The notes under the pieces are model-generated. The model was not told the DNA's origin. It searched no databases and saw only the letters and a program-made list of their open reading frames with translations. A program made the position numbers and the translations under genes. Positions 23,031 through 49,327 of a DNA stretch of 64,000 nucleotides are shown here, in pieces. The stretch lies in assembly GCF_003334765.1 (NCBI RefSeq), contig NZ_QOWT01000010.1; one strand, given 5' to 3'. Source of the DNA: Escherichia coli. GTDB taxonomy: Bacteria; Pseudomonadota; Gammaproteobacteria; Enterobacterales; Enterobacteriaceae. Every line of letters begins with the position of its first letter. The first letter of the stretch is position 1.

Positions 23031-23131
23031 TGCCGGATGCGACGTGAACGTCTTATCTGGCCTACAAGACCATGCAAATTCAATATATTGCATAAACCAC
23101 GTAGGCCTGATAAGCGTAGCGCATCAGGCAG
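23031..23131. repeat. REP/BIME cluster (two inverted REP units)
   Basis: TGCCGGATGCGACGTGAACGTCTTATCTGGCCTAC ... GTAGGCCTGATAAGCGTAGCGCATCAGGCAG; typical REP consensus elements in inverted orientation. Confidence 0.8.
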
Positions 23132-38736: not shown

Positions 38737-38826
38737 ATGCCGGATGCGATGCTTGACGCGTCTTATCCGGCCTACTAATTCATCCCGAATCGTAGGCCGG
38801 ATAAGGCGGTCACGCCGCATCCGGCA
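38737..38826. repeat. REP/BIME cluster between malQ and gntT
   Basis: GATGCCGGATGCGATGCTTGACGCGTCTTATCCGGCCTAC ... GTAGGCCGGATAAGGCGGTCACGCCGCATCCGGCAG; two inverted REP units. Confidence 0.8.
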
Positions 38827-43747: not shown

Positions 43748-43984
43748 TTAACGCAGCGCCCACCACTCGCGCAGACAGGCTTTTCCTTCCGGGCAGCTTT
43801 TACAACTGCCAGAGAGGCAGCCGTCAGGTTCTTCCTGAATCCGCACGGCTTTGCCCATACTTTCCAGTTGTTGCAGCATGGCGTTAATCATTGGCTGTGG
43901 AGTGTTCAATGTCTGGCTTATCTGGGCCGCTTCCATACGGCCCCGTAACGCCAGCAAATCGCGCACCTGAATAAGTGAAGCCAT
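43748..43984 (-). CDS. feoC: Ferrous-iron transport regulator-like protein FeoC
   Basis: ORF trimmed to [26 protein letters not shown]... (78 aa) with a C-terminal Cys cluster. Confidence 0.9.
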
Positions 43985-46305
43985 TAATGGCAATCACCGG
44001 TGGTGCTGGCTGCGCAGCAACTGCTTACCGACTTGCGGGTTGCCAGCAGTTCGATATCCACCCGGCTACGCGCGCGGCGCAGCAGACCGATAACCACGAT
44101 GTTAAACAGGATAACCGCCAGAATGCACACCAGGCTGTAAGTTGGATGCTGACTGTAGCTGGCGACCTGATAGAACAATGTTGCCAGTGAGTAAGCGATA
44201 TTCAGCCCCCACAGGATGGAGAAGCCCATCCAGCCACGGCTTGATTCACGGGCGATAGCCCCCATCACCGAGATACATGGTACATACAGCAGGACGAAAA
44301 TCAGGTAGCTGTAAGCTGCTGCTGCGCTACCGAATTTCTGATCCATCACGCCCATCGCCCCGGTACCCATTTCGCCGTCGCCTTTGCTGGCTTCAATGGG
44401 GTTCATCAGTACGCTAAGGCTGAAGGTGTCTTTCAGGCTCTGCCAGGTTTCATCTATCGCACTGAACAGCTCTTCACCGAGGTTAAATTCTGCCGGATTG
44501 AACTCTTCGTCCTGAATATTTTCTGCGGTGTAGAGGGTGTTGAGCGTACCCACTACCACTTCTTTCGCCATGGCACCTGTAAACAGGCCAACCGTTGCCT
44601 GCCAGTTATCTTCATGCACGCCAATTGGCTTGAAGACCGGGGTGATCACCCGGCTGACGGACGCCAGCGCCGAGTCGTTGATGTTATCGACGATTTTCCC
44701 GCTCAGCGAGAAGCTGTTGAAAGCGCTCAGGAAAATGCTGACGATGATGATCACTTTACCAGCACGCAGAACGAAGCCTTTCAGACGCTGCCAGGTCTGG
44801 ATAATCAGGCTTTTAACGTGTGGTACATGATAGACCGGCAACTCCATGACAAACGGCGTCGCTTCACCGCGCATGATGGTGTACTTGAGCATCAGGCCAG
44901 TCAGCACCGCCATCACAATACCCAGCATATACAGCGAGAAGACCGCCAGCGCACCGTTCTGCCCGAAGAAGGCAGCCGCGAATACTGCGAAGATAGCCAG
45001 ACGCGCGCCGCAGGACATAAACGGTGCCATCATGATGGTCATCAGACGTTCACGCGGTGCATCAAGCGTACGTGCACCCATTACCGACGGTACGTTACAA
45101 CCGAAACCGACGATCAGCGGCACAAAGGATTTCCCCGGCAAGCCCAGCGCCTGCATCAGACGGTCCATCACAAACGCCGCACGCGCCATATACCCGGAGT
45201 CCTCAAGGAAGGAGAGGAACAGGTACATCATGCCAATCTGCGGCACCAGTGGCAGCACGGTGTTAATGCCGCCACCCAGGCCCTGGGCGAGGAAGATAGT
45301 CAGCCAGTCCGGGAAGTGGAGCGTGTAGCCAATCCATTGAATACCATGCACAAATAGCGCCACGGAGCCGACGTCAAACAGCGGCTGTAACGCCCCGCCG
45401 ATGTTGATAGCCAGCAGGAACATCAGGTACATCACAAAGAGGAAAATCGGCAGACCGAGGAAACGGTTGAGCACGATTTTATCTACCGCAGTGGTGAAAC
45501 GGCTGGGTTCTGCCGTCAGGGTGTTGCTTACCACATCACAGATGGCAGCAATGCACTGGTAACGCGCATCGGCAATGTGCAGCGCCGGATCGTCCATCTC
45601 ATTACGCAGACGGGCGAGGGCGGCATCCAGATGCTGCGACGCTTCACCGGCGTAGGCGCGGCTGTAGATATCGCCTTCCAGCATTTGCAGGCCCAGCCAG
45701 CGACGTTGTTTCAGCGGGATGTCGGAAGGCATCACTTTTGCCAGTGAATCTGCTTCGTTGAGCAGCGGCTGTGCGTAATGCACCAGTTCCACATTCTCGT
45801 TAGCTTTATAGCGATCAATCGCCAGCTTGAGCGCTTCAATACCGCGACCACGGGTTGAAACCAGCGGGATCACCGGACAGCCCAGACGCGCCGACAGAGC
45901 ATCAATTTCAATACGAATATTTTGCTTCTCGGCAATGTCGAGCATGTTCAGTGCCACAATGCAGGGAATGCCGAGTTCCAGCAGTTGTAGCGTCAGGTAC
46001 AGGTTACGCTCAAGGTTAGACGCATCCACCACGTTAATCAGCAGGTCGGCGTCGCCACTCAAAATGTAGTGACAGGCGATTTGCTCATCGAGCGAGGTCT
46101 GCGATGAGATGGTGGTCAGAGAATAGGTGCCGGGCAGGTCCACCAGCGTGACCTGATGATCGGTGGTGGAGAATTGCCCTTCTTTACGTTCGACGGTAAC
46201 GCCAGCCCAGTTACCTACACGCTGACGTGAGCCAGTGAGCTGGTTAAATAACGTTGTCTTGCCAGAATTTGGATTACCAATTAAGCCAATGGTTAATTTT
46301 TTCAT
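43984..46305 (-). CDS. feoB: Ferrous iron transporter FeoB (GTPase-permease)
   Basis: ORF 43984-46317 trimmed to [25 protein letters not shown]... (773 aa); N-terminal G-domain and polytopic C-terminal permease. Confidence 0.97.
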
Positions 46306-46321
46306 TGTTGTTATCACCGTA

Positions 46322-46549
46322 TTAACAGGAAACCGCTTCCACTTCTAATAAGGCCAGATCTTTTTTGCGTAATACCAGGCTCACACGACGGGTTTCGATA
46401 TGAATGGGGTCGCCGAGTGGAGCGACGCGCACCACATTAAAAGAGGAGCCAGGTAACATGCCAAGAGAAAGCAGTTTTTGGCGATATGCCGGGCTGATTT
46501 CACGGGAAAAGCCAGTGATTTTCCACGCAGTATCTGGAGTGTATTGCAT
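46322..46549 (-). CDS. feoA: Ferrous iron transport protein FeoA
   Basis: 75-aa [38 protein letters not shown]... Confidence 0.95.
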
Positions 46550-46657
46550 AGGTGCCTACTTGTTTCTCATTAACTGGATAACTACCTCATGGGGCGTTTG
46601 ACAGCGACATGAGACCAGATGATTTGCCAACAAAGGAGAGATTAAATAATCAACAAC

Positions 46658-46752
46658 ACAATGATAATGAGAATGGTTTCTATCAGCAATACTTAAAATG
46701 TGTGCGAATGTTGGTTTGAATAATAATCTGACTCAATGTTGATGTGGCTCAA
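46658..46752 (-). promoter_or_regulatory. feoA upstream control region with candidate Fur box and FNR site
   Basis: AATGATAATGAGAATGG (Fur-like, about 46660-46678) and TTGATGTGGCTCAA (TTGAT-N4-xTCAA, FNR-like, 46739-46752) within the AT-rich leader upstream of feoA; exact positions not verified. Confidence 0.4.
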
Positions 46753-46887
46753 GGTTATATCGCAGCGAAAATATAATTCGAATAGTGAATTACCCGGACT
46801 GGCTAATGTTTAATTAAGGTTTCAGTTGTTAATGAAATGATAAATATTGCCGGAATATATTATGAGTTTGGCTGTGGAATAAAAATG

Positions 46888-47000
46888 CCGGAGATATTCT
46901 CCGGCACTTTTATGTCAGGCAAGGCGTTCGTTGCCAGATGCGGCGTGAACGCCTTATCTGCCCTACGATTTCGTGCAAATTCGAACCGTAGGCCAGTACG
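46888..47000. repeat. Terminator hairpin plus REP-like elements downstream of tex
   Basis: GCCGGAGATATTCTCCGGC hairpin (T-run on the minus strand), then REP-like GCCAGATGCGGCGTGAACGCCTTATCTGCCCTAC and GTAGGCCAGTACGGGCG. Confidence 0.6.
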
Positions 47001-47005
47001 GGCGT

Positions 47006-49327
47006 TTAACGTTTTTTGCCCATTGCCGCCGCCAGCGCATCCATCATCGCGCTATTACCGGCAGGCTGCGCTTCACGACCGCGTGGTTTGGCTGCCGGGC
47101 GGTTGTTTTGCGGGCGTTCATTACCGCCGCCGCGACGAGCGTTGGTTTCGCCAGGCTGCTCATCCAGGCGCATAGTCAGGGCGATACGTTTACGCTGAAG
47201 ATCCACTTCCAGCACTTTCACCTTCACAATGTCGCCCGCTTTCACCACGGTATGCGGATCTTCCACAAACTTGTTCGACAATGAAGAGATGTGAACCAGG
47301 CCGTCCTGATGCACGCCAATATCGACAAACGCGCCAAAGTTGGTGACGTTGGTCACTGCGCCTTCGAGGATCATACCCGGTTGCAGGTCGTTCATTGTCT
47401 CGACGCCATCGGCAAACTGAGCGGTTTTAAATTCCGGACGCGGATCGCGACCCGGTTTTTCCAGCTCTTTGATGATGTCGGTTACCGTCGGCACACCGAA
47501 TTTCTCATCAGTAAAGTCAGACGCTTTCAGGTTACGCAGTTCGCTGCTGTTACCCATCAGATCTTTCAGTGCCTGCTGTGTTGCTGCCAGAATGCGTTCC
47601 ACCACCGGATAGGCTTCCGGGTGAACGGTAGACGCGTCCAGCGGGTTATCACCGTGGTTAATGCGCAAGAAGCCCGCGCACTGCTCGAAGGCTTTCGGCC
47701 CCAGACGGCTCACTTTTAACAGTTGCTGACGGTTCTGGAACTGACCGTTCTCATCGCGCCAGGCAACGATGTTTTGCGCCATCATGCGCGTCAGGCCCGC
47801 CACGCGGGTTAACAGCGGAACAGAAGCAGTGTTGAGATCGACGCCAACGGCGTTTACGCAGTCTTCTACTACTGCGTCCAGTTTGCGGGCCAGTTGCGTC
47901 TGGCTGACGTCATGCTGATACTGACCTACGCCGATAGATTTCGGATCGATTTTCACCAGCTCCGCCAGCGGATCCTGCAAACGGCGGGCGATAGACACCG
48001 CGCCACGCAGCGAAACGTCGAGATCCGGGAACTCCTGTGCAGCCAGCTCGGAAGCCGAGTAAACCGACGCGCCTGCTTCGCTGACGATTACTTTCTGCGC
48101 GGTCACTTTCGGGAACTGCTTCTGCACATCGAGATAGAAACGCTCAGTTTCGCGGGAAGCTGTACCGTTACCGATCGCTACCAGTTCAACGTTATGTTTT
48201 TCACACAGCGCAGCAACGGTCATCGCTGCTTTTGCGGCCTGTCCGGTGTGCGGGTAAATGGTGTCGGTCGCCACCAGTTTGCCAGTGGCATCGACCACCG
48301 CCACTTTTACCCCAGTACGCAGACCCGGATCGAGGCCCATCGTTGCACGCAGTCCGGCAGGGGCCGCCATCAGCAGATCGTGCAGGTTACGGGCAAAGAC
48401 GTTGATTGCTTCATCTTCCGCACGTTCGCGCACGGTGCCCATCAGTTCGGTTTCCAGATGCATCAGCACCTTGATGCGCCACGTCCAGCTCACCACGCCT
48501 TTGCGCCAGCTATCCGCCGGGGCATTGTTCAGGCGCAGGCCAAGGTGATCCATGATGATTTGCTCGCAATAGCTCTCTTTGGGCGGCTCATCGAACTGTG
48601 GATCGGCATTCAGCGAAAGCTGAAGTACGCCTTCGTTACGCCCACGGAACATCGCCAGCGCGCGGTGAGAAGGCACCGTGGACAACGGTTCGTGATGATC
48701 GAAATAGTCGCGGAATTTCGCCCCTTCCTCTTCTTTACCGCTCACCACCGTAGAAACCAAATGCGCGTTCTTCCACAGATAATCACGCACTTTCGCCAGC
48801 AGCGCGGCATCTTCGGCAAACCGTTCCATCAGGATATAGCGCGCGCCATCCAGCGCGGCTTTGGTATCTGCCACGCCTTTATCGGCATCAACATATTGTG
48901 CAGCGGCGACTTCTGGCGTGTGTGACGGATCGCTCCACAGCAGGTCAGCCAACGGCTCAAGCCCTGCTTCAATGGCGATTTGCCCGCGGGTGCGGCGTTT
49001 AGGTTTGTAGGGCAGGTAGAGGTCTTCGAGTTCGGTTTTGCTTAGGGTGGCGTTGATGGCCTTCGCCAGATCATCGGTGAGTTTGCCTTGCTCGGAAATG
49101 GACTTGAGGATCGCCTGACGTCTCTCTTCCAGCTCGCGCAGATAGCTCAGACGCGTTTCCAGATTACGCAGCTGCGTGTCATCCAGACCGCCGGTGATTT
49201 CCTTACGATAACGTGCGATAAACGGCACGGTATTCCCTTCGTCAAGCAGGCGAACGGCAGCGTCAACCTGTTCCGGGCGCGCCTGAATTTCACCCGCAAT
49301 AATGCGGCAGAACGAATCATTCATCAT
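47006..49327 (-). CDS. tex: Transcription accessory protein Tex (YqgF/HhH/S1 domains)
   Basis: 773-aa [46 protein letters not shown]... with a C-terminal S1 domain. Confidence 0.95.

Follow-up and report, generated by a model that had tools for sequence, protein, structure and literature searches.

The 456-bp non-coding gap between tex (yhgF) and feoA of Escherichia coli is very probably the already known feoABC control region joined to the 3' tail of tex, and these known parts account for its length. The regulatory content that the gap holds beyond Fur and FNR consists of further, already published transcription factor sites, and not of a small RNA (sRNA) or a small open reading frame (ORF). 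Within the window, i.e., the whole 64-kb stretch of DNA that was analysed, the gap matches the E. coli K-12 feoA promoter (feoAp; Fur, FNR, ArcA, OmpR, NagC, and NsrR) in locus and in sequence, and the published transcription start, promoter hexamers, Fur footprint, FNR 14-mer, and ArcA/OmpR motif all coincide with it. What we add are data on conservation and spacing across species.

Locus and composition of the gap

The gap spans positions 46550-47005 and is bounded by tex/yhgF on one side and feoA on the other (Table 1). Its length as given by the ORF coordinates agrees with the roughly 450 bp of non-coding sequence of the original prediction, and its AT-richness is evident from a G+C content of 31-42% over 46550-46900 versus 47-65% in the flanking genes. 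Positions 46540-47015 are 100% identical to E. coli K-12 MG1655 (NC_000913.3, 3539697-3540172), in which the genes are annotated as yhgF, feoA, feoB, and feoC; the predicted assignments of tex and feoA were thereby confirmed. By megablast, the gap was found in all complete E. coli genomes searched (5426/5426). Positions upstream of feoA are numbered from the A of its ATG (46549), so that -n corresponds to window position 46549+n. Published coordinates on the older MG1655 version (U00096.2) were shifted to NC_000913.3 by an offset of 1978, with which the coordinate of the FNR 14-mer agrees; W3110 coordinates were placed with the genome record of that strain.

From tex towards feoA, the 456 bp are made up of the tex 3' tail with hairpin, repetitive extragenic palindrome (REP), and terminator (~130 nt), an unconserved spacer (~30 nt), a response-regulator site (~45 nt), an unconserved linker (~50 nt), the FNR site (14 nt), a moderately conserved linker (~50 nt), the core promoter with the Fur box (~35 nt), and the feoA 5' untranslated region (UTR, 105 nt). 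The upstream regulatory DNA with the response-regulator and FNR sites comprises ~220 bp. The gap had been described as a long leader upstream of feoA; the gap is real, but by the published start only the 105 nt next to feoA are leader, and ~130 bp at the other end belong to the 3' end of tex.

Table 1. Features of the tex-feoA region in window coordinates.
Feature	Position	Strand	Basis or remark
tex/yhgF ORF	47006-49327	-	
Hairpin CCTACG-N19-CGTAGG, directly 3' of the tex stop codon	46962-46992	-	predicted stem; strain-variable
REP element, core GATAAGGCGTTCACGCCGCATC at 46937-46958	46930-46965	-	repeat count, fold
Intrinsic terminator of tex, AAAAGUGCCGGAGA-aua-UCUCCGGCA then UUUUUAUU	46877-46913	-	inverted repeat, terminator scan, fold
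ArcA direct-repeat site TTGTTAATGAAATGATAAATA	46826-46846	+	Park 2013; opposite-strand OmpR motif ttATCAtttcattAACA
Extension of the response-regulator site, CTGAAACCTTAATTAAACATTAG	46803-46825	-	identity 0.67 vs 0.28-0.31 on either side
FNR site TTGAGCCACATCAA	46739-46752	-	centre 196.5 bp upstream of ATG, ~-91.5 from start
Stretch between FNR site and -35 hexamer, including GATTATTATT and CCAACAttcgCACACA	46692-46738	-	identity 0.57
-35 hexamer TTGCTG	46684-46689	-	Mendoza-Vargas 2009 supplement
Fur box GATAGAAACCATTCTCATTATCATT	46659-46683	-	consensus match, ChIP-exo, conservation
-10 hexamer TATCAT	46661-46666	-	Mendoza-Vargas 2009 supplement
feoABC transcription start site, 105 nt 5' of ATG	46654	-	454 5'-end sequencing
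feoA 5' UTR, 105 nt	46550-46654	-	published start; weak Shine-Dalgarno sequence AAGUAGG
feoA ORF	46322-46549	-	
feoB	43984-46317		downstream of feoA

Conservation across Enterobacteriaceae

Retrieval of feoA loci from a single genome of each species gave 80 loci, 76 of which preserve the tex-feoA synteny with gaps of 256-745 bp. Across these 76 species, identity to E. coli was highest in the promoter/Fur block (-142 to -110; 0.90), followed by the FNR site (0.83), the ArcA/OmpR site (0.74), the Shine-Dalgarno region (-14 to -1; 0.73), the start-site-proximal part of the UTR (-109 to -90; 0.70), and the extension of the ArcA/OmpR site (0.67). Lower values were obtained for the linker between the FNR site and the -35 hexamer (0.57) and the middle of the UTR (-89 to -15; 0.45), and the lowest value of the feoA-proximal region for -253 to -206 (0.28). 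The tex tail with its REP and terminator reached 0.20-0.34.

Spacing is conserved along with sequence in the promoter-proximal part. The -10 hexamer is TATCAT in 65 species and the -35 hexamer is TTGATG, TTGCTG, or TTGAAG in 69, and the two are separated by 17 bp in 76/76. TTG...TCAA of the FNR half-sites is preserved in 74/76 species, and 71/76 agree with the consensus in 8 or more of its 10 positions at the aligned site. In 74/76 species, the FNR centre lies 84-85 bp from the -10 hexamer. The distance between the ArcA/OmpR block and the FNR site varies between 54 and 127 bp.

Core promoter and Fur box

A genome-wide 5'-end study reported a feoA start at -105 with -35 hexamer TTGCTG, a 17-bp spacer, and -10 hexamer TATCAT (Mendoza-Vargas 2009, PMC2760140), and the same two hexamers were read from the window sequence. 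The promoter scan did not pick up the feoA promoter, the -35 hexamer of which matches at only 3/6 positions. Park 2013 implies a start at -106, one base off, by locating the ArcA site at -191 to -171. The record of the start site consists of the one 454 entry and this implied value, which probably derive from the same source. The start-site tables published with Ettwiller 2016 and Kim 2012 have no entry for the locus; either feoA is silent under aerobic conditions or the tables are incomplete, both of which are possible.

The Fur box contains the -10 hexamer, abuts the -35 hexamer, and overlaps the promoter spacer, i.e., it lies over the core promoter. It includes the predicted Fur-like element AATGATAATGAGAATGG (46660-46676, plus strand). 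The 19-bp Fur consensus GATAATGATAATCATTATC is matched here at 13/19 positions in two registers, offset from each other by 6 bp (46657-46675 and 46663-46681). This match alone is not distinctive, with 23 positions at 13/19 and 28 at 13/19 or better in the 64-kb window. As a positive control, the best match of the window (16/19, 5674-5692) is located 32-50 bp upstream of the RyhB gene (5724-5788, Rfam). Occupancy in vivo is documented by Fur ChIP-exo peaks at 3538047-3538080 of MG1655 (U00096.2) and at 4100359-4100371 of W3110 (Gao 2023, PMC10164565), which map to -138 to -105 (46654-46687) and -118 to -106 (46655-46667) from the ATG, respectively. Fur occupied feoA only in iron-replete cells (condition 'R') in this study (Gao 2023, PMC10164565).

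We judge both the Fur and the FNR site to be real because they are conserved in 71-76 of the 76 species and occupied in vivo; taken individually, their consensus scores are at chance level in 64 kb. The Fur-like element is upheld by conservation and in vivo occupancy. The arrangement resembles other Fur-repressed sigma-70 promoters such as ryhB, where an array of Fur hexamers likewise covers the -10 hexamer and the start. Compared with the ryhB promoter, the consensus match at feoA is weaker (13/19 versus 16/19), and the feoA promoter also depends on distal activators.

FNR site

The plus-strand form of the FNR site, TTGATGTGGCTCAA, matches TTGAT-N4-ATCAA at 9/10 positions, and a scan of the 64-kb window returned eight matches with at most one mismatch versus 3.0 expected. 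The predicted pair of FNR-like half-sites held up, as it is conserved and coincides with a site known from published ChIP-seq data: the 14-mer TTGAGCCACATCAA was listed at U00096.2 position 3537982 with a matrix score of 14.6, and ChIP-seq peak positions at feoA are 3537996 and 3538050 (Myers 2013, PMC3688515). The same authors proposed that Fur masks the activation of feoABC by FNR in iron-replete medium (Myers 2013, PMC3688515).

The centre of the site at ~-91.5 is not that of a class II activator site (-41.5) and falls on the class I helix face. Natural FNR-activated promoters are mostly class II (-41.5). In its phase the feoA site agrees with class I activation of the FNR/CRP type (-61.5, -71.5, -82.5, and -92.5); it is far from the usual -41.5. 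FNR may contact RNA polymerase from here, or may act by countering Fur or H-NS. The fixed spacing between FNR site and promoter in the species comparison supports such a phase-dependent role from ~-91.5. We also considered class II activation by FNR, with transcription starting ~155 nt upstream of the ATG, and rejected it because there is no -10-like hexamer at the required spacing; the TATTAT that is conserved at -177 to -172 is separated from the FNR centre by only ~20 bp.

The linker between the FNR site and the -35 hexamer includes CCAACAttcgCACACA, a second predicted OmpR motif; a fragment with this motif alone was not shifted by unphosphorylated OmpR in an electrophoretic mobility shift assay (EMSA; Gerken 2020, PMC7315122).

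Distal response-regulator site and further inputs

Upstream of the FNR site, direct repeats TGTTAA-tgaaa-TGATAA, the starts of which are 11 bp apart, are present at 46828-46844. They belong to an ArcA site reported at U00096.2 3537888-3537908 with 17.6 bits, under a ChIP peak and at -191 to -171 from the start, and feoABC was classed as directly activated by ArcA (Park 2013, PMC3798270). An EMSA shift by OmpR requires a fragment with ttATCAtttcattAACA, 278-294 bp upstream of the ATG, and the same paper cites that RstA binds a similar motif upstream of feoA in Salmonella (Gerken 2020, PMC7315122). The conserved stretch adjoining the site, CTGAAACCTTAATTAAACATTAG, may on sequence grounds contain further half-sites. 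The variable distance between the ArcA/OmpR block and the FNR site is a poor fit to a simple contact model.

Other published inputs within the gap are an NsrR ChIP peak 95 bp upstream of feoA (PMC5320621), and an H-NS mark and an RpoD SELEX peak (PMC3946193). A database-derived list of feoABC regulators comprises FNR, OmpR, ArcA, Fur, and NagC and names no sRNA. The expectation of additional regulatory content beyond Fur and FNR was correct only to a limited degree: ArcA/OmpR, NsrR, H-NS, and NagC inputs exist, but all of them are already published.

feoA 5' UTR

In the UTR, ~15 nt at the 5' end and ~14 nt at the 3' end, the latter with the weak Shine-Dalgarno sequence, are conserved, and the middle is poorly conserved. 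Of this middle, ~65 nt are missing in Enterobacter, Leclercia, Lelliottia, Silvania, and Huaxiibacter, which have UTRs of ~35-40 nt. The E. coli UTR folds in an ordinary manner (z = -0.16, 126 nt tested), and no excess of folding was observed in 61 other species with a long UTR (mean z = -0.06). No Rfam family reached its gathering score in the gap, neither in a permissive search of 45800-47800 nor in a gathering-threshold search of the whole window, for which RyhB served as positive control; sub-threshold matches to several sRNA families at 46770-47011 were far below gathering scores and located on REP and terminator sequence.

In Escherichia, a seven-codon upstream ORF (uORF) encoding MSLSNAP (~46588-46611) overlaps a CUCAUG...CAUGAG stem. 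This uORF is without a Shine-Dalgarno sequence, its start codon is lost in Salmonella, and a uORF peptide conserved across species was not found, the peptides differing widely. An antisense ORF of 36 codons (46609-46719) is not conserved either; any antisense ORF of at least 25 codons was present in 24/76 species. The small ribosome-binding-site-like region that had been noted corresponds to AAGGAG at 46633-46638, which is on the plus strand and thus antisense to feoA. We read it as a chance occurrence because the nearest following start codons are at least 22 nt downstream and hence at no workable distance.

tex 3' tail

The tex tail comprises three hairpins and folds far better than shuffled sequence (z = -7.2). 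The stop-proximal hairpin is present in K-12-like strains and in E. albertii; O157:H7 and ST131 carry a 19-bp-shorter replacement, and in most E. coli genomes the megablast alignment of the gap begins at query position 48. The REP-like palindromes of the original prediction were verified by the core sequence, of which four copies with at most three mismatches are present in the 64-kb window versus none expected. The element is a GC-rich imperfect palindrome outside of genes, with further megablast places elsewhere in E. coli genomes and a sub-threshold Rfam match to the REP-derived naRNA4. It is not kept between genera (identity 0.32), and E. albertii has ~50 nt of extra sequence in the REP stretch. 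REP/BIME elements at the 3' ends of E. coli genes are likewise repeated, strain-variable palindromes between stop codon and terminator; unlike paired BIMEs, the K-12-type allele has a single REP here.

A tex terminator abutting this region had been postulated and is indeed recognizable as a hairpin followed by a T run. It consists of a 16-nt inverted repeat that is 94% complementary with a 3-nt loop, which forms a strong stem (9-16 bp) in the minimum-free-energy fold, and UUUUUAUU provides the U run on the tex strand. The terminator scan placed the hairpin on the plus strand, and the A tract at its 5' side makes the terminator look bidirectional. The 3'-end tables of Adams 2021, which are possibly incomplete or limited by growth condition, have no tex or feoA entry that would map an RNA 3' end to the tex U run.

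Alternative explanations

The middle of the UTR (~46565-46640) could be a clade-specific post-transcriptional element, tuning translation or stability as a leader peptide (MSLSNAP), through the hairpin UCUCAUG-N17-CAUGAGG, or as an sRNA target site. Such an element would act in addition to the control of feoABC at the level of transcription. It would fit that this part is identical across Escherichia and recurs in Citrobacter, with its 7-bp hairpin and seven-codon uORF: positions -70 to -1 are identical in E. coli, O157:H7, ST131, and E. albertii and the upstream linker varies, Citrobacter and Intestinirhabdus again have the CTCATG...CATGAG stem along with a short uORF of about the same length, and other genera with long UTRs show, as judged by eye, different GC-rich palindromes at about the same place. 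However, the fold is ordinary in E. coli as well as in the 61 other species, in Salmonella the stem is mismatched and the uORF has lost its start codon, and the uORF peptides diverge and are not preceded by a Shine-Dalgarno sequence. That the whole UTR middle can be lost in five genera argues against a family-wide RNA-level device, the Rfam searches and the regulator list produced no match and no sRNA, respectively, and published effects of CsrA on feoABC are largely indirect. We therefore consider a post-transcriptional element in the UTR very unlikely. An independent sRNA from the gap, as had also been suggested, appears extremely unlikely. It could be derived from the tex 3' UTR, which is highly structured and ends in a terminator, the usual build of such sRNAs, or be transcribed antisense on the plus strand from a promoter-like site at 46832-46861, just upstream of the hairpin, into the bidirectional-looking hairpin. 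The promoter scan returned this one site against 1.6 expected by chance, the sRNA-family matches at 46770-47011 have the scores and the location described above, and the tex tail is the least conserved part of the gap (0.2-0.34) and varies even among E. coli strains. The antisense ORF at 46609-46719 is not conserved, and no entry for this part of the gap or naming feoA was found in the Adams 2021 3'-end tables, the single data set searched, which is weak evidence given the poor aerobic expression of feoA and the possible incompleteness of the tables. Taken with the missing Rfam match, the ordinary fold, the lack of a conserved ORF, and the loss of the UTR middle in several genera, the prediction of a small ORF or sRNA in the gap was not sustained.

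We also regard as unlikely a second, upstream feoABC promoter in E. coli that would be served by the distal ArcA/OmpR block. Two promoters have been proposed for feoABC of Yersinia pestis, which likewise has a long regulatory region and a Fur-controlled proximal promoter; its authors see no detectable similarity between the Y. pestis and E. coli promoter regions, and E. coli differs in having one start on record and in that Fur repression works aerobically, too. The block is ~170-190 bp from the mapped start, which is far for direct activation, and an RpoD SELEX study predicts another hexamer pair, TTATCA-15-TTTAAT, in the gap (PMC3946193). Against this, the searched table gives a single feoA start, the promoter scan yielded no minus-strand site, and the stretch 3' of the ArcA/OmpR block (-253 to -206), with an identity of 0.28, is the least conserved feoA-proximal part. 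The known feoABC control region with one mapped promoter, together with the tex tail, remains our preferred reading.

Proposed mechanism

The elements with their conservation and spacing, the binding of Fur, FNR, and ArcA in vivo, the gel shift with OmpR, and the mapped start, as established here or in the cited papers, are consistent with the following model. A sigma-70 promoter (TTGCTG-17 bp-TATCAT) would initiate feoABC transcription 105 nt upstream of the ATG. When iron is plentiful, Fe2+-Fur on the hexamer array over the spacer, the -10 hexamer, and the start would block RNA polymerase, presumably by occlusion. In the absence of oxygen, FNR at ~-91.5 on the class I helix face would increase transcription, presumably in a phase-dependent, class I-like manner. 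Regulators of the OmpR/PhoB type at the direct-repeat site ~170-190 bp upstream of the start would add redox and envelope signals, through ArcA and OmpR in E. coli and possibly RstA in Salmonella. They possibly do so by countering Fur or H-NS instead of contacting RNA polymerase. NsrR, NagC, and H-NS would act as the further published inputs to feoABC. The feoA mRNA would carry the 105-nt 5' UTR, in which we recognise a weak Shine-Dalgarno sequence but no RNA device, and the tex transcript would end at the GC-rich hairpin and U run after the variable hairpin and the REP.

Biological significance

Enteric bacteria import ferrous iron mainly through FeoABC, which is important for gut growth and virulence. 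Its promoter is a textbook meeting of iron (Fur) and oxygen (FNR, ArcA) signals, and this picture is unchanged by our analysis. The cross-species conservation and spacing data are a modest addition and reveal a pattern for the family, in which sequence and exact spacing are preserved for the promoter, the Fur box, and the FNR site, the ArcA/OmpR block floats, and the middle of the UTR can be lost.

Sequence variation and candidate regulatory sites in the tex–feoA gap

The most strongly matching Fur-consensus site in the whole window, found by consensus scan, lies 32–50 bp upstream of the RyhB sRNA gene and served as the positive control for the scan. A lower-scoring match overlaps the ArcA/OmpR direct-repeat site in the gap upstream of feoA, and may be either fortuitous or a second, weak point of contact for Fur; published ChIP-exo rows for Fur give the proximal site only (Gao 2023, PMC10164565). 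Closer to the feoA start site, the conserved stretch AACATTCGCACACATTTTAA occupies the position expected for a bound class I activator. This stretch includes a second OmpR/RstA-like motif, for which no shift was seen with unphosphorylated OmpR (Gerken 2020, PMC7315122).

Features in the window
Feature	Position	Strand	Remarks
Fur-consensus match	5674-5692		16/19
RyhB sRNA gene	5724-5788	+	Rfam, 83 bits
REP core copy	23036-23057	-	1-2 mismatches to GATAAGGCGTTCACGCCGCATC
REP core copy	38800-38821	+	1-2 mismatches to GATAAGGCGTTCACGCCGCATC
Conserved stretch AACATTCGCACACATTTTAA	46692-46714		about -60 to -38 from start site
Fur-consensus match	46833-46851		12/19
Hairpin CCTACG-N19-CGTAGG	46962-46992		immediately past tex stop codon
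REP core copy	61209-61230	+	1-2 mismatches to GATAAGGCGTTCACGCCGCATC

At the tex end of the gap, the hairpin is strain-variable in E. coli: K-12-type strains carry it, as does E. albertii, and O157:H7 and ST131 have a 19-bp-shorter sequence in its place. In most E. coli genomes, alignment to the gap begins only at position 48. The REP core GATAAGGCGTTCACGCCGCATC of the tex 3' tail has three further copies elsewhere in the window.

Across genera, the feoA 5' UTR is only ~35–40 nt long in Leclercia, Lelliottia, Huaxiibacter, Silvania, and Enterobacter (feoA loci L040, L042, L063, L072, L079, and related loci). These genera lack the central ~65 nt seen in the UTRs of Escherichia, Salmonella, and Klebsiella, and retain the promoter, Fur box, and FNR spacing. 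The UTR of Klebsiella indica (locus L071) reaches ~238 nt, including a GC-rich, REP-like insertion of ~130 nt, and because of this insertion we conclude that the middle of the feoA UTR tolerates large changes.
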